Shown here: piece after piece, positions 1-35,586 of the stretch
How the letters are laid out: the number at the start of each line of letters is the position of its first letter
Numbering within the stretch: the stretch's first letter is position 1
Source: an uncultured Pseudomonadota bacterium
GTDB taxonomy: Bacteria; Vulcanimicrobiota; Vulcanimicrobiia; Eremiobacterales; Eremiobacteraceae
Assembly (NCBI GenBank): GCA_963736005.1
Contig: CAVTNB010000001.1
Span: 800,001-864,000 of the forward strand
Reading direction: 5' to 3'
Length of the DNA: 64,000 nt
The notes under the pieces: model-generated
Told to the model about the DNA's origin: nothing
What the model saw: only the letters and a program-made list of their open reading frames with translations
Database searches by the model: none
Made by a program: the position numbers and the translations under genes

Positions 1-498
1 CAGGGCACGGTAGCGCTCGAGCTGTGTCGCGAGGTCCCCGATCTCGATGCGTTGTTCGTTCCGCTCGGCGGTGGTGGGCTGCTCTCTGGAAGCGCGGTGG
101 CCGCAAAAGGTCTGCGACCGGAGATTGCGCTCTACGGCGTCGAGCCACAGGCGGGCAACGATTGGGAACGTTCGTTTCAAAAGGGCGAGCGCGTGCGGAT
201 AGCCATTCCCGATACCATCGCCGACGGTTTGCAAGCGACATCGCCCGGTGCGCTCGCCTGGCCGATCGTGCACGCACTCGTCGCGGGCGTTCTCACCGTT
301 TCTGACGATGAAATTCGACAGACGATGCGTCTGCTTTTTGAATTCGGCAGGCTCGTCGTCGAACCATCGGGCGCGGTCGCCGTCGCTGCAGCAATGTTTC
401 ACAAGACGGCGCTGCGCGGCAAGCGAATTGGAGCGATCATCTCAGGTGGCAATGTGGACCCGCGGGAGTTTTGCAAACTCATTTCAAGCGCTAGCTGA
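1..498 (+). CDS. Threonine/serine dehydratase-like PLP enzyme (5'-truncated by window edge)
   Basis: Frame 1 reads QGTVALEL...VPLGGGGLLSG...TIADGL...VVEPSGA...ISGGNVD, typical of the fold-type II dehydratase C-terminal half. Confidence 0.9.
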   Translation, partial: QGTVALELCREVPDLDALFVPLGGGGLLSGSAVAAKGLRPEIALYGVEPQAGNDWERSFQKGERVRIAIPDTIADGLQATSPGALAWPIVHALVAGVLTVSDDEIRQTMRLLFEFGRLVVEPSGAVAVAAAMFHKTALRGKRIGAIISGGNVDPREFCKLISSAS

Positions 499-565
499 GG
501 TCGATGGGTACAGGGGCCATGGCCTGTCCCTCGAATACGTCGAGTACGACAGAGGAGGTTTTGCT

Positions 566-943
566 ATGGCAAAGACCGTTGCTCTCATTTTTGGCATCAT
601 CTATACGCTTGTCGGTATCATCGGTTTCCTTCCCGCCTTGGGTGGCACATTTGGCATGGCTCCCAGTGCGTTGCTCAATATCTTCAGTATCAATGCTCTT
701 CACAACGTCGTTCACTTGGTCATCGGTGTTGGGGCGTTGATCGTTTCGGGCACTGAAGAAAAAGCAGCTCCATTCTTGCGCACGTTTGGATACATTCTCA
801 TCCTCATCGCCATTGTGGGCTTCTTTTGGAAAAACCCGTTCAATATTTTGCCGATTGGCGGCCCAGACGTTTGGCTCCATCTTGTCACCGGGCTCATCTT
901 CGTGTGGGCCGGGATGACCTCCGCACGCCCGGCCACTGCGTAA
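566..943 (+). CDS. Small membrane protein, DUF4383-like
   Basis: GGAGG RBS then ATG at 566; four hydrophobic segments; motifs 'NALHNVVHL' and 'DVWLHL'. Confidence 0.75.
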   Translation: MAKTVALIFGIIYTLVGIIGFLPALGGTFGMAPSALLNIFSINALHNVVHLVIGVGALIVSGTEEKAAPFLRTFGYILILIAIVGFFWKNPFNILPIGGPDVWLHLVTGLIFVWAGMTSARPATA

Positions 944-969
944 CCTTCCGCGGGATCGCGCATCGACGA

Positions 970-993
970 GCGGGCGACTTGACAGTCGCCCGC
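970..993. repeat. REP-like palindrome, family A (GTAG tag degenerate)
   Basis: gcgggcgact-tgac-agtcgcccgc, a perfect inverted repeat matching other copies in the window. Confidence 0.8.
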
Positions 994-1018
994 AATTATT
1001 TGGTCAAGGCCTCGAGTT

Positions 1019-1882
1019 GTGACTGACTTTACCTTCATAACCTATCGCGATTTGCCAAACCTCGACCCAGACGATCGTCTCGCCGCCGACTTGTTACGAC
1101 AGCGAGGCTTTACCGTTGGCGTGGCGGTCTGGGACGATCCCTCGGTTACATGGGCGAACGGCGGCATTTGCGTTTTGCGCTCCACGTGGGATTACAATCT
1201 GCGACTTCAGCAGTTTCTTGCTTGGGCTGAATCGGTTGCAGCGATTGCACCATTGTATAATCCGATCTCTTTGGTCCGGTGGAACAGCCATAAAAGCTAT
1301 TTGAAAGACCTCGCGGCGCGGGGCGTGCCGGTTGTTCCAACCCACTGGCTGAAAATTGGCGCGCAGGTTGACCTTGCAGCGATTCTCCGCGAACTGCGCT
1401 GGGAACGAGCAGTCGCCAAACCGGCCGTCGGCCTGTCGACCTACGGAGTGAAGGTCGTCGACGCAGGTCCGGACGCGCAGGCGCATGTCAATGAGCTGCT
1501 GCGCGAATATGACGTTATGCTGCAACCATATATTACCTCAGTCGACGATTATGGCGAGCGGGCGCTGACGTTCATCGATGGAATCTATTCCCATGCGACG
1601 CGCAAGACCGCATTTCAGTCGCTTGCGCCTGCGGGTGAAGCGGGAGAGACTGCAGCGCAAGCCACAGGAGAGGAGATTGCAGTTGGAGTGGCCGCGATGC
1701 GGGCGCTGGAGGAACCGGCTCTGTATGGACGCGTCGATATCGTCCGCGATAGCGCAGGCGCACCACGAGTGATTGAAATGGAGCTCGTCGAGCCAACCCT
1801 CTTTCTCGGAATGCACCCGCGCGCAGCAACTCGCTTTGCCGATGCGCTGGCCAAACGTGCGCGCTCACGGTCGCCATGGTGA
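1019..1882 (+). CDS. ATP-grasp fold protein (RimK/glutathione synthetase-like)
   Basis: Motifs RSTWDY, WNSHKSYL, KPAVG, YGRVDIV, EMELVEPTLF. Confidence 0.8.
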   Translation: MTDFTFITYRDLPNLDPDDRLAADLLRQRGFTVGVAVWDDPSVTWANGGICVLRSTWDYNLRLQQFLAWAESVAAIAPLYNPISLVRWNSHKSYLKDLAARGVPVVPTHWLKIGAQVDLAAILRELRWERAVAKPAVGLSTYGVKVVDAGPDAQAHVNELLREYDVMLQPYITSVDDYGERALTFIDGIYSHATRKTAFQSLAPAGEAGETAAQATGEEIAVGVAAMRALEEPALYGRVDIVRDSAGAPRVIEMELVEPTLFLGMHPRAATRFADALAKRARSRSPW

Positions 1883-2571
1883 TTTATCATTTTTGCAACG
1901 ATACGTTTGGCAGACCGTTTCCGGCGGTGTCAGCTGCGTTTGCGAAAGCGAGTGGGCTGCGGATCGTTCGGGTGTTGGCTGAGAAGCCGCCCGAATCTTC
2001 GCTTGCTTCGATGTCGAAAGCGATTCGCAGACCCGCAAGTCGCGCGCTTCGACGCGTTCAGCGGATGTTAACTAGAGCTCCCAGTCATGGTGAGGATTTG
2101 CCGACTCTCTATGTAACTGACGTCAACGCTCAAAGTTTCCGGCGATATATCAAAAAGGGCGACGCCGGCGTCATCACGGGCTTCAATCAGATCTTTAGCG
2201 CGGAGACGATCGAACGCTTCAGCTCGTTCGTGAATCTGCATCCCTCAATATTGCCGCTCTACCGCGGACCGGTTCCGACCTACTGGTGCATTCGCAATCG
2301 CGAACGCTTGACTGGATTCACCTTGCATAAGGTGACTCCCAAGATTGACGTAGGCGAAGCGCTGTATCAGGAAGTTGTTCCCATTGAGGGCGAGACCGAT
2401 GTGCTCGGTCTCGAGCTGAAGATCGCTCGCGCTGCGCTGCCGATGTTCTCGCGTTACTTAGAGCACCTTGCAACCGGCATGGAATGGGTGCCTCAATACG
2501 TTGATGCGTTCACCGTATACCAAACGCATCAGAACTACGCGACGTTTCCGGAGCTAGAATCTTTGGGATGA
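1876..2571 (+). CDS. Formyltransferase family protein
   Basis: NLHPSILPLYRG and TGFTLHKV..KIDVG motifs; overlaps the upstream ORF. Confidence 0.8.
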   Translation: MVIYHFCNDTFGRPFPAVSAAFAKASGLRIVRVLAEKPPESSLASMSKAIRRPASRALRRVQRMLTRAPSHGEDLPTLYVTDVNAQSFRRYIKKGDAGVITGFNQIFSAETIERFSSFVNLHPSILPLYRGPVPTYWCIRNRERLTGFTLHKVTPKIDVGEALYQEVVPIEGETDVLGLELKIARAALPMFSRYLEHLATGMEWVPQYVDAFTVYQTHQNYATFPELESLG

Positions 2572-2612
2572 CCGGGACTCGAACCCGGACGCCCTTTCGG
2601 GCGACAGATTTT

Positions 2613-2861
2613 CGCACCACTATGGCTTTCGCCACCACGTAAAGCGGACCTAAAGGTCCGCTGCTACATTGTTTGTGGTCCGGACTGTGCCTTGACCATA
2701 TCGCTTTGCCGCGACGTAGGCCGCGCCCATCCAGTCTCTACGCCTTCTTTCGTGCGTGCATCGAAAGCTTGGTTCGGCGTTGTCACGCCCCGCGGGCAAG
2801 AGAGTTCGCCGAGTTTGAGCGCATCCCGAAGGCGGTTTCCCAATCCTTCGGCTCCAAACGG
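2613..2861 (-). ncRNA. Group I self-splicing intron (IC3-like), 249 nt, no homing-endonuclease ORF
   Basis: Inserted after U34; P1 CUU|C-CGUUU-GGAG with a U-G splice-site pair; P/Q/R/S-like cores CTCAAACTCGGCGAA, AACGCCGAACCAAG, GCGTAGAGACTGGATGG, AAGGCACAGTCC; terminal G. Confidence 0.9.
2643..2667 (-). repeat. REP-like palindrome, family B, inside the intron
   Basis: GTAG-CAGCGGACC-TTTA-GGTCCGCT, identical to 23981-24005 and 35526-35550. Confidence 0.85.
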
Positions 2862-2951
2862 AAGTCTGTCGTGTCTGCCGATTTCACCATCATCCCACGA
2901 TCGGCGTCGATATCGTTGGCTTTCGCCGTGTCAAACGCCTCGGTGACTGAA

Positions 2952-3134
2952 CTAGCGGCGTCCAGCCTCATCGTAGCTTCGTGCCATCGGGTATAATCTC
3001 GCAAATCCAGCAATCGAGAGCACACCGAAGATGACAGCATCCCATGGGAAACCGCTATCACCGATGCTCAGGGACATCCAGAACACCGTGATCGCGATGT
3101 TGAGCATGCAGCCGATCCACCAAAGCACAACCAT
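2952..3134 (-). CDS. Small hypothetical membrane protein (60 aa)
   Basis: GAGGTGG RBS upstream; two hydrophobic segments. Confidence 0.5.
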   Translation of the reverse strand: MVVLWWIGCMLNIAITVFWMSLSIGDSGFPWDAVIFGVLSIAGFARLYPMARSYDEAGRR

Positions 3135-3165
3135 AACAATTCCACCTCAGTGGATTATCGGCATT

Positions 3166-3281
3166 TGGGCGACTTGACAGTCGCCCACTACGTTGGCGCG
3201 GGCGGCGGGAATGGGGCGATTTTCCAATCGCCCCCTACAGGGCGCGGACGGCATTTGGGCGATTTTCCAATCGCCCGCTAC
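3166..3281 (-). repeat. Cluster of three family-A REPs (3166-3191, 3213-3238, 3257-3281)
   Basis: Each is GTAG-N-GGGCGA..TCGCCC on the minus strand. Confidence 0.88.
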
Positions 3282-5401
3282 ACGACTGGGGCGAGGACGA
3301 GGAGCTCGTTTACCCCTTCGTCCAGCACTTGCTGGGCGAAGCTTTTTGGCCCCAGCCATCGCGGCTTCGTGCGAACCCCCTCCACAACAAACGTTGCTCC
3401 TGGGTGCGCCGCACCCATTCGCGCCAAGCCCCTCGCGGGGTTGGTGTCGGAATCGACCACCCAACGCCCATCGAGCATCCGCGTTGTTTCGCTCAACGTC
3501 TTGAGCGCAGCGCTTTGCGCGGCTTGCGCCGACGAGCTCACATGCACTACCGTAAAATCCGCATTGAGACGCTTGGCAAGCCGCGCCGCACGCTGCACGA
3601 GCACCGTGTCGCGCTCCCGAGCTGCGACCCCGAGCACAATTTCGCGGACGACATGCGGCACGCGCGTCGTTGCGCGCGCCCTCAGTGCTTCTCGCAAGGC
3701 GAGCTCGCGCAGCGCTGTGAGATTCTCGGTCCGAAAGAACGAACTGAGCGCTGCTTCAATCCGTTCCTTTGGATAAATTTTCCCCGCGCGGAGGCGATCG
3801 CGCAGCGTCTGGGCGCTGGCGTCGATGAGAACGACGTCGTCTGCCAGCTCCAAGATGCCATCCGGCATCGTCTCGCGTACCGTTACGCCCGTGAGCCGGC
3901 GCACGATGTCATTGAGACCTTCGAGATGTTGAACGTTGAGCGTAGTCAGCACCGAGATCCCCGACCTCAGGACGCTGAGAACGTCTTCATAGCGCTTGGG
4001 AAATTTGCTGCCGGGGGCGTTGGTGTGCGCAAGCTCGTCGATGAGGGCAACCTGTGGGCGGCGCTTAAGCAGCGCTTCGAGATCGAGCTCTGAATAGCGC
4101 ATCCCACCACTGACGATCTCTAATCTCGGTAACGTTTCCAGGCCTTCAAGTTTCCGGGTCGTATCGACACGCCCATGTGTCTCGACAAATGCAATGACGA
4201 CGTCGACACCTTCGCTTTTCAATTGGTGTGCCTGGTCGAGCATCGCATAGGTCTTGCCGCATCCGGCCGCCGCGCCCAGATAGACGGTGAGGCGACCGTA
4301 ACCCACGCGCATCCGATCGCCAGCCGTGCGCGCGTACGGATGCTGGCCAAAATCGTACGGTCCTTCTCGCTCGACGGGTTCGACGAGCCTCGAGGCGACG
4401 AACACATCGCGATCGATAGGGAGCTTCAGCAATTCGCTCGATACCCTGCCTTTCGGCAGCGCGACAAACGAAGCTGCGAGGTCGCGAAGTTGTGGTCTTG
4501 CAAAATCAAACGTCGAGTTCGACACGACGTGCGCGCCAACGGACGTGGCGACTCGCGCAACACTCTCTTCGCCGAAGCCGGGCGCTGGCAACACGGCGAG
4601 ATCGAGATTGAAGGCGTCCGCAAACGCGCCGACCCGGGCAAGAAACGCTTCAGTATTGAAGCCCGGGAACAAGAGCGCGAGCGCCGTTGACATGCGAGCG
4701 GCGGGGAGCTCCGGCACTGTGAGGTCATCAATGGTCCGCAGCATCATCTCGCGCAATGCGCGCAACGTCTGCGGCCGAAATGGGCCTTGCAACGCGCGCT
4801 CGATATCATCTTTGCGCACGATAGCGCCCGCGTAGAGGCGCGCTTCAAGCTGCTCGCGCTCCACGTCGATGGCAATAACCTGGTCTGCCGCTTTGAGAAA
4901 CGTCAGCGGCACGATTTCCCGAATGGGGAAGCCGATGAGGGCTTCTGCCGTCGGTGCGACGGTATCGAGGTGCGCGATGTTCATCGCACCGAGCACGCTG
5001 ATGCCGGCAGCGCGCAGGGCGAGGGCGTCTTGCCAGCGCTTCGCGTGCACGGATCCGGGAAGATTCGTGTGCGCAAGCTCATCGAGCACAATAGCCTGTG
5101 GTCGCGCAGCCAGCGCGGCTTCGAAGTCAAACTCGGGGAACGTCGTCGCTCCAACTTCAACCATTCGCGGGGGGATGCGCGGCAGACCCTCGCACAGTCT
5201 CTCGAGATCCGCCCTGCCTTTTGTTTCGATCCATCCGAGCACGACGTTGGTGCCGCTCTGTTGTAACTGTCGAGCTTCGCCGATCAGCCGATACGTCTTG
5301 CCCGCTCCGGGAGCGAAGCTGACGAACACCGTGAGGCGCGCCTGGGCCCCAATCTCCTTGAGGAGCTCGGTTGGGGTGGGGCGCTGCGCACGTGCGTCCA
5401 T
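3278..5401 (-). CDS. kdpD: Soluble KdpD-like sensor with two tandem KdpD N-terminal domains and USP-like domain(s); no TM or kinase domain
   Basis: Two copies of the G.GKTY / ET.GR / DELAHTN.PGS / N..HL motif set; likely start MDARAQ at 5401 (the longer ORF is an antisense overlap with the kinase). Confidence 0.85.
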   Translation of the reverse strand: MDARAQRPTPTELLKEIGAQARLTVFVSFAPGAGKTYRLIGEARQLQQSGTNVVLGWIETKGRADLERLCEGLPRIPPRMVEVGATTFPEFDFEAALAARPQAIVLDELAHTNLPGSVHAKRWQDALALRAAGISVLGAMNIAHLDTVAPTAEALIGFPIREIVPLTFLKAADQVIAIDVEREQLEARLYAGAIVRKDDIERALQGPFRPQTLRALREMMLRTIDDLTVPELPAARMSTALALLFPGFNTEAFLARVGAFADAFNLDLAVLPAPGFGEESVARVATSVGAHVVSNSTFDFARPQLRDLAASFVALPKGRVSSELLKLPIDRDVFVASRLVEPVEREGPYDFGQHPYARTAGDRMRVGYGRLTVYLGAAAGCGKTYAMLDQAHQLKSEGVDVVIAFVETHGRVDTTRKLEGLETLPRLEIVSGGMRYSELDLEALLKRRPQVALIDELAHTNAPGSKFPKRYEDVLSVLRSGISVLTTLNVQHLEGLNDIVRRLTGVTVRETMPDGILELADDVVLIDASAQTLRDRLRAGKIYPKERIEAALSSFFRTENLTALRELALREALRARATTRVPHVVREIVLGVAARERDTVLVQRAARLAKRLNADFTVVHVSSSAQAAQSAALKTLSETTRMLDGRWVVDSDTNPARGLARMGAAHPGATFVVEGVRTKPRWLGPKSFAQQVLDEGVNELLVLAPVV

Positions 5402-5473
5402 GAGTGGATTCTTCTGCCAGGTCAAAAGCTTTTCCAGCCGAAGCGTCCGATTGAAATGCAGAACTCCGCAAAC

Positions 5474-7078
5474 ATGAGACCACACCTGACGCTCATTGTC
5501 TGCATTGTTCTTCTCCTCGGCGCGTTTGCGTTTGACATGATAACGCCGCAAGCGCTCGTGGCAGCGATTCTGTTGACCATTCCCGTGGCGTTGAGCAGCT
5601 TGCTTCTCAACCGCAAGATCACGGGGACATTTGTCGTCGCGGCGCTCGTGGCCGACGTCGTTGCCGGTTGGTACAACGGCGCAGTCGAAGGACATCACTG
5701 GAGCACGATTGCCATCGCCAACCGGGCGCTGGCGGCGTTCTCCATCATTCTTGTCGGCGTGCTCGGCACGCTCGCGCAAGCAGCAGCGCAACGAAGCGGC
5801 CAAATTGCGGCCGAGCACCGTCAGGCCGAGCGAGAGCAGGCACTGCGCCGAGCCATGGAAACGATTCGTTCGTCGCTCAACGTCGAACTCGTCGCGCGGG
5901 CAATCGTACGGGAAGCGGTTGAGGCCCTGGGCGTCGACAGCGCTCGCCTTTATACGATTGAGAGCCATAATTTGGGAGCGACAACCTTCACGTGGGTCGC
6001 CGGCGGCGAGGACGTGAGCGTCAGCTGCGACCGTCCGAGCGCAGAGCTGCTTTCTCTGTTACAGCGAAGTCTCAGCGAGCGGCATCTCGTTGCGATAACC
6101 GAAGCCGATGCGCTGGGAAGGTTTGCGCTCGCGACGCTGGGCGCGGCACGCGCGATATGCGTCCCCTTAGTGAACTCCCAAATCACGTTTGGCATGCTGC
6201 TCTTGGCCGTCAAAGATGAGGGAAGTCTGCCGCCGGATATCGAGCAGTGGGTGGGAATCTTTGCCGAACAAGCCACCGTCGCGGCCGCTCAAGCCTCACT
6301 CTTTGTCGAGCTCGCCGATCGCAACGCCGAACTCCAGCAGGCAAACGAGACGCTGCAACGGCGTGGCGAGGTCATCCGTGACCTCGTGTATGCGTTATCT
6401 CACGACCTACGCACGCCCCTCACTGCGGCCGCGATGACCATGCAACAGGCACTCGACGGCGTTTACGGTCCGCTGCCGGAAAAGTATCGTGAAATTCTTC
6501 TCCGCTCGATTGTGTCGAACGACGAGCTTCGGCGGCTCGCCGAAACGTTGTTGCTCGTCGCTCGCTACGAGTCAGGCGAGCAATCGACCAGTCGCGAGCC
6601 CGTTGAGCTGGACGGTCTCGCCACGAGCGTGGTCACGGAGCTTGAGCCACTCTGGCGCGCGAAGCACATCGACTGCGCGGTTCGATCGGACGGTAAGTCG
6701 GCAATTTTAGGCGACGAGGCCGAGCTTCGGAGAGCGCTCACGAACCTGTTGGCCAACGCCATCAACTGGACGCCCGAAGGAGGCCACATTTGGATTACGA
6801 TCGCGCCCGCCGGCGCGAGAGTTTTGGTACGGGTTGAAGATGACGGCTACGGCGTTCCGCCACATGTGCGCAAGCAACTCTTTCAGCGCTTTGGCCCCGG
6901 CGATCACTCGCGACAAGGTGCGGGATCGGGGCTAGGTTTATACCTCGTCCGGCTGATCGCGGAAAATAACGGGGGAACGATTCGTTATGAACCCCGTGAA
7001 GGCGGGGGCAGCACCTTTGCGATCGATTTACCTGCCGCGCAAGCCGATGTAGCATCGCGAATTCATTCGCGAGTTTGA
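5474..7078 (+). CDS. Membrane sensor histidine kinase (TM helices, GAF, HisKA, HATPase)
   Basis: LSHDLRTPL H-box, NLLANA N-box, EDDGYG and GSGLGL G-boxes; hydrophobic N-terminus. Confidence 0.9.
   Translation: MRPHLTLIVCIVLLLGAFAFDMITPQALVAAILLTIPVALSSLLLNRKITGTFVVAALVADVVAGWYNGAVEGHHWSTIAIANRALAAFSIILVGVLGTLAQAAAQRSGQIAAEHRQAEREQALRRAMETIRSSLNVELVARAIVREAVEALGVDSARLYTIESHNLGATTFTWVAGGEDVSVSCDRPSAELLSLLQRSLSERHLVAITEADALGRFALATLGAARAICVPLVNSQITFGMLLLAVKDEGSLPPDIEQWVGIFAEQATVAAAQASLFVELADRNAELQQANETLQRRGEVIRDLVYALSHDLRTPLTAAAMTMQQALDGVYGPLPEKYREILLRSIVSNDELRRLAETLLLVARYESGEQSTSREPVELDGLATSVVTELEPLWRAKHIDCAVRSDGKSAILGDEAELRRALTNLLANAINWTPEGGHIWITIAPAGARVLVRVEDDGYGVPPHVRKQLFQRFGPGDHSRQGAGSGLGLYLVRLIAENNGGTIRYEPREGGGSTFAIDLPAAQADVASRIHSRV
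7049..7072 (+). repeat. REP-like palindrome, family C, within the last codons of the kinase
   Basis: GTAG-CA-TCGCGAATTCATTCGCGA; related to 20276-20299 and 23723-23747. Confidence 0.65.
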
Positions 7079-23748: not shown

Positions 23749-24216
23749 TTAACGGTTCCGACGAGACGATTTGAGCCCCTTCCGGGAACGTCTTGGCATT
23801 TCACGATCTCGGCGCTGGTCTCGCTCTTCAAAAGGAAGAAGACGCTCCGTCCGTTTGTGCGACGTTTCATCGTCATCGACGCGACCGGCGTTTCGGTCCC
23901 ATTCAGACACTTGACGCCAAAAATCAATGATCTTCTGCTCGAGTGATGATGAAAAACGCTCGAGGGGTCTCTCTCCCGAGAGCGGACCTAAAGGTCCGCT
24001 GCTACTTTGCTGCGCGGTGAGCGAGAGTCGGACGCGCCGTCCGTTTTCCTCGGCGACGATGAAAGGGAGGTCTGGATGCCGCCCAGCCATCAACGCCCGT
24101 TTGACAACATCGACGCCTGGATCGGAGGCCGGAAGCAATCCAAAACGGCCATCTTCAAGCCGGACAATGCACCCGAAGCGACTGCAATGCACGACGCTCC
24201 CGCGCACCTGCTGCAC
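23749..24216 (-). CDS. YabR-like S1-domain protein (divergent)
   Basis: G.V....FGCIVRLEDGRFGL S1-like start, SLEQKI..F helix, basic tail; lies directly downstream of divIC as yabR does. Confidence 0.6.
   Translation of the reverse strand: MQQVRGSVVHCSRFGCIVRLEDGRFGLLPASDPGVDVVKRALMAGRHPDLPFIVAEENGRRVRLSLTAQQSSSGPLGPLSGERPLERFSSSLEQKIIDFWRQVSEWDRNAGRVDDDETSHKRTERLLPFEERDQRRDREMPRRSRKGLKSSRRNR
23981..24005 (-). repeat. Family-B REP inside a coding sequence
   Basis: Identical to the intron copy; translated as SSSGPLGPL. Confidence 0.85.
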
Positions 24217-34344: not shown

Positions 34345-35526
34345 ATGAAAGTTTTCCGCGTGGCCACCGCGCTTGGCGCAGTGGTGGTGGCGGTGTATGC
34401 CCTTACCGGCTGCTCGGGGGGAGGAACGGTGAACCCGCCAGCATCGCTCACGAACAACGCGATGGGCACTCAAACGGGTCAATCGGCCGTTGTCGATACC
34501 TCCAATAGTGCTGCCGACACCGACCTCGAGCACGACACCGGCACGTCAGATCTTCAGCAACTCGACGATATGAAGACGATTGGTTCAACCGTCGATCCAG
34601 TCAACGGCGATCAAAATCCGTACGGTCTGGACATCGCGAAAGCGACTTCAGGCAAGCTTGACTCAGGCGATCTCGTCGTTTGTAACTTCAACAATGCGGC
34701 AAACGTGCAGGGAACGGGAACCACAATTATCGCGCTCCATCCAAAAGTTGGATCGGCGCCGCGTCGCATTGCGCAAAGTGCCTCTCTGAACGGATGTGAC
34801 GCGCTCGCGCTTTCACCTATCTCGATCTGGGCCGCCGCGTTTGCAGCGAATGACAACCCAATCGTGTCCCCAGGGGGCATGGTGCTGACGACGTTGAGCA
34901 ACGGACCATTTCATGGTCCGTTCGGACAAGCGTTTGCTCCTCACGCCGGGCCTTTTGGTGTTGCGGCATTCTATGGGAGCAACGCAGGTGACGGCAGCAT
35001 CGTTCGCATCAACATACTGAAAAATGGAACATTCGATTTCGACGTCATCGCGACCGGCTTCCCCGTCAATCATGGAGTTCCGGGCGCCATTCTCGGTCCG
35101 TCCGGCTTACAGTACGATGCCGCGCATGACCGCCTCTACATCGTCGATGGCACAGACAACTCGCTCATCGCGTTTTGCGGCGTCTCGACGATCCCATCGC
35201 ACGGAATTACAGTGATCGGAAATAACTTTGGAGGTCCATTTGGTCATCGTGCACACCTCATCCGTGCTGGACCCCCACTGAACGGTCCAATCAGCTCGGC
35301 GCTACTGCCCGATGGGCACCTCGTTGTTGGCAACACGCTCGATCCCGCCGGCAAAAACCTCATGGTCGAGATTGCGCCTAGCGGTCACGTGCTCGATGTC
35401 AAGAACGTCGATACTGGAGCCGCGGGCGCCATCTTCGGCATGGTGGCATCGGGTCACGATATCAGCGATCTAAAACTCTACTTCAACGACGACAACGCCA
35501 ACGCGGTGGAAGTCCTTTCGAAGTAA
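34345..35526 (+). CDS. Hypothetical lipoprotein (probable beta-propeller)
   Basis: GGAGGT RBS; lipobox LTGC; NGDQNPYGL, GPSGLQYD. Confidence 0.75.
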   Translation: MKVFRVATALGAVVVAVYALTGCSGGGTVNPPASLTNNAMGTQTGQSAVVDTSNSAADTDLEHDTGTSDLQQLDDMKTIGSTVDPVNGDQNPYGLDIAKATSGKLDSGDLVVCNFNNAANVQGTGTTIIALHPKVGSAPRRIAQSASLNGCDALALSPISIWAAAFAANDNPIVSPGGMVLTTLSNGPFHGPFGQAFAPHAGPFGVAAFYGSNAGDGSIVRINILKNGTFDFDVIATGFPVNHGVPGAILGPSGLQYDAAHDRLYIVDGTDNSLIAFCGVSTIPSHGITVIGNNFGGPFGHRAHLIRAGPPLNGPISSALLPDGHLVVGNTLDPAGKNLMVEIAPSGHVLDVKNVDTGAAGAIFGMVASGHDISDLKLYFNDDNANAVEVLSK

Positions 35527-35586
35527 GCGGACCTAAAGGTCCGCTGCTACATTGGACAGAGGGGCGATTTTCCAATCGCCCCCTAC
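35526..35586 (-). repeat. REP pair: family B (35526-35550) and family A (35561-35586) between convergent genes
   Basis: agcggacctaaaggtccgctgctac; ggggcgattttccaatcgccccctac. Confidence 0.88.

Follow-up and report, generated by a model that had tools for sequence, protein, structure and literature searches.

This report concerns a stretch of 64,000 nucleotides (nt), hereafter the window, that covers positions 800,001 to 864,000 of contig CAVTNB010000001.1 (contig C1) in assembly GCA_963736005.1 (genome G000), from an uncultured soil bacterium placed in the Eremiobacteraceae. On its minus strand lies a gene for tRNA-Leu(UAA) that is split by a group I intron, and a hairpin at the periphery of this intron contains a complete repetitive extragenic palindrome (REP) of a dispersed family, termed family B. 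By hand reading the gene occupies 2564..2896; the intron mode of ARAGORN places it at 2563-2897. The 5' exon (2862..2896) ends in ...ACAGACUU, the last U of which is the U.G wobble partner in P1. The intron of 249 nt (2613..2861) runs from CCGUUUGGAGCC... to ...GUGGUGCG with omega-G at 2613, and the 3' exon (2564..2612) runs from AAAAUCUGU... to the discriminator A, with no encoded CCA. The S element, which is the 3' strand of P7 (CACAGUCC; P7 register GACUG/CAGUC), lies at 2682..2689. The REP-B unit at 2643..2670, on the same strand, occupies the place of the variable hairpin P9a.

The intron is inserted in the anticodon loop between U34 and A35 (CUU/CCGUUU...GUGCG/AAAA), an insertion point that has been named 'Leu.3Ug' and has its classical setting in cyanobacteria (Williams 2020 preprint, 10.1101/2020.01.27.920355). 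Removal of the intron leaves a canonical tRNA-Leu(UAA), and both the U-1.G wobble in P1 and the G at the omega position, as expected of this type, are present. In a search of the whole genome, ARAGORN -i reported tRNA-Leu (taa) i(37,249) at C1 802563-802897, which corresponds to window 2563-2897; without intron mode the program found no tRNA in window 1-6000. Rfam 15 returned no family at gathering score in the whole window. This miss does not speak against a group I intron, since orthologues free of the REP were missed too. When RF00028 was applied to five orthologous loci, the shortest (L052) alone gave a match, with 34.9 bits and an E value of 8.5e-6 against a gathering score of 50, a threshold that the host intron does not reach either. 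None of the 12 Rfam intron seed sequences is bacterial (Williams 2020 preprint, 10.1101/2020.01.27.920355).

Comparative folding with RNAalifold used 55 compact, distinct orthologues, and pair counts were made on the same alignment. The tRNA arms, P1, P2, P3, P4, P5, P6, P8 and P9 with its arms P9a and P9b were all recovered, and the U.G wobble at the 5' splice site was present in 55 of 55 sequences. Double compensatory changes were found in five pairs of P2, six of P5, four of P6, five of inner P8 and three of P9b, while P3, P4 and P7 (GACUG/CAGUC) were invariant or almost so. The core helices P3 to P8, with the P3/P7 pseudoknot, are backed by this covariation. On the basis of the recovered helices and their covariation, the Rfam match of L052 and the insertion point, the host was accepted as a group I intron of the Leu.3Ug type; self-splicing itself would be expected from the sequence.

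An earlier note on this DNA, written from the letters alone, had placed the REP 3' of the S element in a tolerant peripheral loop of P9, enclosed by an ACCAC/GTGGT helix and next to a GGC-GAAA-GCC hairpin. The order of the elements on the RNA (minus) strand is as described there, and most of this picture was borne out when the region from the S element to omega-G was parsed. Parsing succeeded in 109 of the 110 loci that contain the conserved core word and gave 97 distinct sequences. They share the plan GGACCAC-(A/G)AAC-(variable hairpin)-G-GUGGC GAAA GCCAU-A-GUGGU-GCG. In the window, all on the minus strand, the 5' strand ACCAC lies at 2675..2679 and is followed by the junction AAAC at 2671-2674, the hairpin P9b (GUGGC-GAAA-GCCAU) lies at 2622..2635, and the conserved partner of ACCAC, a distal GUGGU, forms the 3' strand at 2616..2620.

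The enclosing helix is the point at which the earlier description has to be corrected. Both words are present, but the proximal GUGGU word that adjoins the REP (2634-2638) could form all five pairs with ACCAC in just 5 of the 97 distinct sequences, whereas the distal GUGGU could do so in 84 of the 97. The per-pair canonical counts of the distal helix are 90-96 of 96, one pair is exchanged from A-U to G-C in five distinct sequences, and the same helix was also predicted by RNAalifold. Because the distal word is the partner of ACCAC, the enclosing helix takes in the REP hairpin together with the GAAA hairpin. The latter was correctly recognized as a neighbor of the REP; its five pairs are canonical in 74-96 of 96 sequences, with U-A/C-G and G-C/A-U exchanges in addition to the double changes given above. 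P9 is therefore a three-way junction made of a closing helix, a variable arm P9a and a conserved GAAA-capped arm P9b.

The variable arm is the tolerant loop that had been proposed. P9a ranges from 7 to 50 nt with a median of 12 among the 97 distinct orthologues and folds as a hairpin in most of them. In the window it measures 35 nt, made up of the 28-nt REP, the six bases UUACGU (2637..2642, minus strand) that follow it, and a single G that precedes P9b. The UUACGU lies outside the REP consensus, and its UACG can pair with the UGUA of the REP head, which would lengthen the REP stem. The minimum free energy (MFE) of the P9a segment is -19.5 kcal/mol, and the MFE structure of the whole P9 domain, at -35.8 kcal/mol, is a three-way junction in which the REP stem folds independently. 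In the whole-intron ensemble the pairs of the REP stem have probabilities of 0.99-1.00, and the competing pairing of the REP with the conserved CGGACC of P7/J7-9 has a probability of 0.000.

The REP-B unit of 28 nt reads AAU-GUAG-CA-GCGGACC-UUUA-GGUCCGC-U. GTAG occupies 2664-2667, the stem arms 2655-2661 and 2644-2650, and the loop 2651-2654; the head strand is the RNA sense strand. An 18-nt palindromic core, GCGGACCTAAAGGTCCGC, occurs exactly at 2644, 23982 and 35527 of the window, with an expectation of 0.01, and none of 100 shuffled sequences reached three occurrences. The identity with the two other copies that the earlier note had cited was confirmed. The copy at 23981..24005 (plus strand), putatively intragenic, is identical to the intron copy over 25 nt and overlaps just two mechanically called open reading frames (ORFs), of 155 and 112 amino acids. 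The copy at 35526..35555 (plus strand) is identical over 30 nt, lies between convergent ORFs and is thus intergenic, as had been stated, and is followed by a REP of another family, REP-A, at 35561-35582.

In the 2.84-Mb genome to which the window belongs the core has 152 matches at no more than one mismatch, and a reversed-pattern control has none. From these 152 copies with 40-nt flanks a consensus was built that is informative over approximately 29 columns, (G)AGCGGACCTAAAGGTCCGCTGCTACAT(t). On the head strand it reads aATGTAG-CA-GCGGACC-TTTA-GGTCCGC-TC, which is an unpaired GTAG head, a two-base spacer, a 7-bp stem and a 4-nt loop. The family therefore has the form of a GTAG-type REP, a palindrome with an unpaired GTAG at one end, and its 149-152 copies are dispersed over contigs C1-C3. 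The intron copy agrees with the consensus at 28 of 28 positions, including ten non-palindromic ones and the unpaired TGTAG head. The intron holds a single REP core and not an inverted REP doublet (REPIN).

The genome also encodes the enzymes with which such repeats are associated. Three proteins score above the cut-off of 80 for the NCBIfam model NF047646 'REP-associated tyrosine transposase' (RAYT), with 104.6, 104.6 and 98.3 bits. One of the genes (G000:C3:137813-138274; L063 1270-1731; 104.6 bits) is flanked by family B, with a tandem run of eight 41-nt REP-B units 3' of it and two inverted copies of REP-B 5' of it, and is taken as the cognate RAYT gene. The two others, at G000:C1:912233-912694 (L061) and G000:C1:1990466-1991032 (L062), have family A (GGGGCGATTTTCCAATCGCCCC-CTACA) and a third family, C, respectively, as their flanking repeats. 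All three genes lie outside the window, and families A, B and C have the TGTAG head in common. An HxH motif (PDHIHLL) and the sequence YIRLNPVRAGL are visible in the RAYT proteins; we take the former to be the HUH motif and the latter the region of the catalytic tyrosine. Family B is thus a genuine GTAG-type REP with a cognate RAYT, and the description of the palindrome as mobile was well founded in this respect, with catalysis by the RAYT on these REPs being putative.

Some further features of the repeats were observed. The array directly 3' of the RAYT-B gene (L063 950-1265, G000:C3) carries one REP-B in each of its eight 41-nt units, and the distal units decay stepwise from GGACC through GGATC to GGATA. 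In the third RAYT ORF (L062, REP-C) the annotated start runs through upstream REP-C copies, so that the true start is probably later. Positions 3213-3277 of the window hold two REP-A copies and the sister genome G002 a single one at this place, as if a REP unit had been duplicated locally; at about 3166-3190 there is a variant (GGGCGACTTGACAGTCGCCC) that resembles family A but has diverged from it. The hairpins flagged by a terminator scan were one 3' of the tRNA gene (2541-2525, minus strand) and a second farther upstream, and the REP hairpin was not among them. Along contig C1 the cumulative GC skew is too weak and noisy for an origin or a terminus to be placed. Over approximately 0.5-1.5 Mb of C1, one orientation is in local excess in each of families A, B and C, and the intron copy has the majority orientation.

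The host intron is found in many relatives. A DNA search of 61 related genomes gave a match in 47, and 30 of these 47, with the genome of the window included, carry the gene with its intron in full length, at 68-91% identity (loci L031-L060). In at least 10 of the 61 genomes the exon halves abut directly and the gene is intron-less; the unpublished genome G013 is one of these, as is G001, which belongs to the genus of the window. At least 119 records in a public collection of species representatives contain a conserved 25-mer from the core, and nearly all of the records listed are titled Eremiobacterota or Vulcanimicrobiota, including Baltobacteraceae, Elarobacter, Cybelea, Tumulicola and Velthaea. 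Over loci L031-L143 the intron was seen to be widespread in Eremiobacterota/Vulcanimicrobiota, yet patchy within families and even within one genus. The intron in tRNA-Leu(UAA) is very likely vertically inherited and occurs in many genomes of this group. In the literature covered, which was incomplete, no description of a group I intron in Eremiobacterota was found, and the presence of the intron in the phylum is not claimed as new. As default ARAGORN and the Rfam gathering score both overlook the intron, automated annotation would list such genomes as being without tRNA-Leu(UAA).

Two of the repeat families were counted across the 61 genomes. With a 26-mer and up to two mismatches, family B was counted 149 times in the genome of the window, 38 times in G002, 13 in G003, 4 in G001, 14 in G004, 20 in the unpublished G013, 11 in G028 and twice each in G026 and G009; the other 52 of the 61 genomes have none. 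Family A is confined to the four genomes of the genus among the 61, with 143, 262, 21 and 26 copies. REP-B is the more abundant in G000 relative to G002 (149 vs 38), and REP-A in G002 relative to G000 (262 vs 143).

The earlier note had proposed to align the intron with orthologues and had held that the hairpin would be native P9 structure if it were conserved in genomes that lack the repeat family. The alignment gave the opposite result, as only the intron of the window carries REP-B and the hairpin is present in none of the other 96 distinct P9 regions. One may nevertheless suppose that the hairpin is a native P9a that resembles the repeat by chance or convergence, or that the repeat family was born from the intron hairpin. 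P9a is natively a hairpin at the place of the REP, and the short native P9a of G026 (L033), CCGUAGGG followed by GG, holds a GTAG-like word. An agreement of 28 of 28 positions that extends to ten non-palindromic ones argues against such a resemblance, as does the absence of the hairpin from all of the other distinct P9 regions. Furthermore, family B occurs in genera g2 and g7, where the introns lack it, and G003 (13 copies), G026 (2) and G009 (2) have introns without REP-B despite the presence of family B elsewhere in the genome. Family B flanks its own RAYT gene, and a nearly identical intron holds family A instead. A native or convergent origin is therefore extremely improbable. The word in G026, GUAGGGGG, equals the REP-A head and first stem bases; this could be fortuitous, or else the first REP may have been drawn to the native hairpin by a REP-like word there.

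The nearly identical intron was found on a Joint Genome Institute (JGI) metagenome contig, L183, which shares approximately 98.5% identity with the window outside P9a and 95.8% overall. Its P9a holds REP-A with the head on the sense strand, and this head begins two bases after AAAC, the exact point at which the REP-B head starts in the window. In the sister species G002, the intron of which is 91% identical, the same hairpin contains a complete 28-nt REP-A whose head lies on the antisense strand. Within the genus, P9a measures 9 nt in G003, and G001 is intron-less. The single hairpin P9a thus exists in four states within one genus.

Other lineages were found to have filled loops of this intron with repeats of their own. 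In another family of the class (f2), a different dispersed repeat, TCCTGAGCTTGTCGAAGG, is present in 23 of the 28 f2 genomes with up to 158 copies (control, 0). Dispersed repeats other than those of G000 and G002 occur in P9a or other loops of 11 further distinct introns, which brings the number to 13 of the 96 distinct full-length introns; the positions concerned are near the 5' end, in P5, in P6 or in P9a. Repeats of the TCCTGAGCTTGTCGAAGG type were observed at these positions in L053-L056, L058, L059, L065, L089, L120, L124, L139 and L140. Among the eight P9a segments of at least 30 nt, five hold REP-A, REP-B or the TCCTGAGCTTGTCGAAGG repeat (L031, L032, L059, L065 and L139), and a sixth, L124, holds a more diverged TCCTGAGCTTGTCGAAGG copy by eye.

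To place these alleles in a wider context, REP sites of the whole genome were compared with orthologous sites in 800 kb of one sister genome (G002:C3:1-800000). Of 471 REP cores in G000 (A 143, B 182, C 146), 83 had both 120-nt flanks uniquely mapped. At these 83 sites, G002 has the same family alone at 43, A and B both at 1, a different family at 10, no REP at 17 and a degenerate or unclear state at 12. From G000 to G002, the ten family swaps are B to A in five cases, C to A in three and C to B in two; orientation is kept in seven, ambiguous in one and inverted in two, and the intron is one of the inverted cases. Such differences in presence and absence between related genomes are those expected of mobile REPs. 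All three exact REP-B copies in the window sit at or beside a family-A site: the copy at 35527, which G002 lacks, is an immediate neighbor of a conserved REP-A, and at the places of both the 23982 copy and the intron copy G002 has REP-A. This comparison indicates that REP families replace or join one another at fixed places, the intron hairpin included.

Collectively, these results make it very likely that REP-B is a tolerated passenger that makes up P9a of a Leu.3Ug intron and that probably replaced an earlier REP-A. P9a in this genome would accordingly be almost wholly one REP-B unit. Family B would spread at the DNA level, presumably through its cognate HUH/Y1 RAYT acting on single-stranded hairpin DNA. 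At the RNA level, the REP would fold into a longer P9a stem that leaves the catalytic core, P9 and the P9b tetraloop untouched, and for this reason the intron should still splice; the REP would be no working part of the ribozyme. In the most likely history, P9a was first occupied by a REP in an ancestor of the species group, and REP-B later displaced REP-A in the lineage of the window, as the closest relatives hold REP-A in the same hairpin and REP families swap at other orthologous sites. The colonization of a tRNA intron by a palindrome, which the earlier note had put forward, holds in that a REP does lie in a group I intron; it probably does not hold as a single first colonization, in place of which turnover of one REP for another is the likelier course. 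The corrected architecture of P9 and the evidence for this turnover at the hairpin are what the present analysis adds. The suggestion that a nuclease recognizing the REP could affect intron mobility or tRNA maturation is speculation.

Several points weigh against this interpretation. First, the bases on both sides of the REP differ between G000 and L183 (AA vs CG; UUACGU vs UAGUGCAGCG). The two alleles are therefore not related by a clean exchange of one REP for another, and independent insertions into an empty ancestor could also have produced them. Second, the activity of the RAYTs on the REP families considered here is putative. Third, thermodynamic folding leaves aside tertiary structure and the P3/P7 pseudoknot, and an Rfam search of window 2450-3050 at E<=10 gave four chance-level matches with no Intron_gpI among them. 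Fourth, the sole contig from an RNA library (X18; 2706-2868, three differences) contains unspliced intron and 7 nt of exon, and it may derive from DNA or from a relative. Fifth, the genome assembly is 84% complete, and a second, intron-less tRNA-Leu(UAA) could accordingly lie in the missing part.

The last point leads to the proposal that the insertion harms splicing and that the tRNA gene is being lost, with another tRNA-Leu(UAA) in the unassembled 16% of the genome. Apart from the incomplete assembly, such a proposal could appeal to the intron-less genes found in relatives, one of them in the same genus. Plain ARAGORN on the whole assembly found 46 tRNA genes, with each anticodon in single copy except for three tRNA-Met(CAU); since none of these reads Leu(taa), the intron-bearing gene is the only tRNA-Leu(UAA) found among 47 tRNA genes. 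UUA codons number 1,633 in 875 long open frames, or 3.6% of Leu codons. Neither the exons nor any core helix is damaged, and all conform to the family consensus, an identical 3' part of the intron with its REP was recovered from an independent sample, the other anticodons are represented as described, and the REP is predicted to fold independently. Loss of the gene is thus a very unlikely explanation, and the tolerated passenger, in an intron whose splicing competence is predicted from its sequence, is preferred. Other intron-containing tRNAs reported by ARAGORN -i (Arg, Glu, Pro, Leu-caa and 'Stop') were rejected as false positives, as they have no REP core and their anticodons duplicate those of normal genes.

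The independent sample also bears on the assembly itself. A repeat could be wrongly threaded into an intron, and short-read contigs of runs X1 and X3 do break at the edges of the REP, at 2641-2643 and 2669-2671. Such an artefact has hardly any probability: a contig from another study (X4; record 16) spans 2560-2700 with 0 differences and bridges both junctions, with 83 nt and 30 nt to its two sides, and a REP also occupies this hairpin in two other assemblies. Joints of X3 from 2666-2671 to 3166-3167 were considered as deletions and rejected as repeat-to-repeat contig paths. The X4 contig matches perfectly to 2560 and continues into unrelated sequence beyond; it may be that the gene with its REP is followed by other sequence in that sample, or that the contig is a chimera.

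A different question is whether the REP, once in place, has become useful. A stable REP stem in P9a, or a protein bound to it, could aid the folding of the ribozyme or shield the intron or the precursor from exonucleases, and could be kept by selection. All three of the closest intron-bearing genomes (G000, L183 and G002) have a REP in P9a, the REP stem at -19.5 kcal/mol is much more stable than the 0 to -8 kcal/mol of a typical P9a, and long P9a stems of 24-37 nt without recognizable repeats exist in other lineages, such as L121 at -27.4 kcal/mol. However, the three alleles differ in the family and the orientation of their REP, a P9a of 7-14 nt suffices in most orthologues and in G003 of the same genus, and ordinary intergenic sites show REP turnover at the same rate. 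Co-option is therefore considered unlikely.

It is conceivable, and put forward as a tentative idea that is more doubtful than the passenger reading on which it builds, that P9a is a fixed 'address' for the exchange of REP families and that replacement of one REP by another is a general, so far undescribed mode of spread. RAYTs are thought to cut at the TGTAG head. In such an exchange, a RAYT could swap hairpins in single-stranded DNA by way of the common TGTAG head and leave the flanks undisturbed. If this were true, an essential tRNA intron would be a natural reporter of REP exchange, with three alleles among nearly identical strains, each of which would have to remain splicing-competent. 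In the available part of Nunvar 2013 (PMC3686654), the words 'replaced' and 'hot spot' were not found.

The sequence upstream of the tRNA gene contains a small ORF at about 2945-3130 of the window (minus strand), which would encode a hydrophobic protein of about 60 amino acids that starts MVVLWWIG.... This ORF is conserved in G002 and L183, with differences that are mostly third-position-like.

These observations have several consequences. First, RAYT-type REPs, which are usually viewed as intergenic, can live in a catalytic RNA that is probably needed by the cell, where they take over an arm that is naturally variable. Second, nature has carried out an experiment in which nearly identical or related introns hold REP-B, REP-A in each orientation or short native hairpins, and this set of alleles can be used to test the tolerance of the group I P9 junction and the manner in which REPs replace one another. 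Third, short-read assemblies are interrupted within a tRNA gene where the REP lies. In the literature, of which the coverage of subscription journals was incomplete, no account of a group I intron that contains a RAYT-type REP was found.

Compared to the GTAG-type REP/RAYT systems, as they are described in the accessible parts of Nunvar 2010 (PMC2817692) and Di Nocera 2013 (PMC3733652), family B has in common a 7-bp stem, a 4-nt loop and an unpaired GTAG at one end, more than 100 copies per genome, several coexisting families, and a RAYT gene flanked by inverted cognate REPs. The two-base spacer between head and stem is like the dinucleotide of the GTAG-1/2 families (Di Nocera 2013, PMC3733652). 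Two differences were noted with respect to the accessible text of that survey. The phyla it names are Proteobacteria, Cyanobacteria, Chloroflexi and PVC, and the phylum of the window is outside this list. Furthermore, REPs inside protein-coding genes are documented there (PMC3733652), whereas the copy described here lies neither between genes nor in one that encodes a protein but within a catalytic RNA.

Compared to the tRNA-Leu(UAA) intron of cyanobacteria and plastids (Williams 2020, 10.1101/2020.01.27.920355), the host intron has the same insertion point, U-1.G wobble and omega-G, a similar length of approximately 250 nt, and GAAA-capped peripheral hairpins. Unlike that intron, it is Eremiobacterota-like, is too divergent for the RF00028 gathering score, and has a P9 three-way junction with an extra variable arm.

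IStrons, in which a group I intron is fused at its 3' end to an IS200/IS605 or IS607 insertion sequence (IS) element (Tourasse 2014, PMC4227781, accessible portions), likewise combine a group I ribozyme with an HUH/Y1 (IS200/IS605-related) element, and palindromes recognized by the transposase double as RNA stems in both. According to the same portions of that study, however, IStrons are members of subclass IA2 that reside in protein-coding genes, contain transposase ORFs and are mobile as a unit (PMC4227781). The window instead has a fixed tRNA intron of 249 nt with only a 28-nt, non-autonomous REP that lacks an ORF; no IS transposase ORF lies at the 3' end of this intron, and the RAYT genes are elsewhere.

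The nearest precedent is found in Nostoc, where the P6b stem of the tRNA-Leu(UAA) intron consists of heptanucleotide repeats of Class I or Class II, with repeated replacement of one class by the other, and where P9 is called variable, according to the part of Kaasalainen 2015 (PMC4476775) that could be consulted. There, too, repeats make up a peripheral stem in an intron of this kind, and the stem varies in length and swaps its repeat class between close lineages. The repeats of Nostoc P6b are tandem 7-nt units with no known transposase in that part of the study (PMC4476775), whereas the stem in the window is a single RAYT-associated REP unit in P9a.

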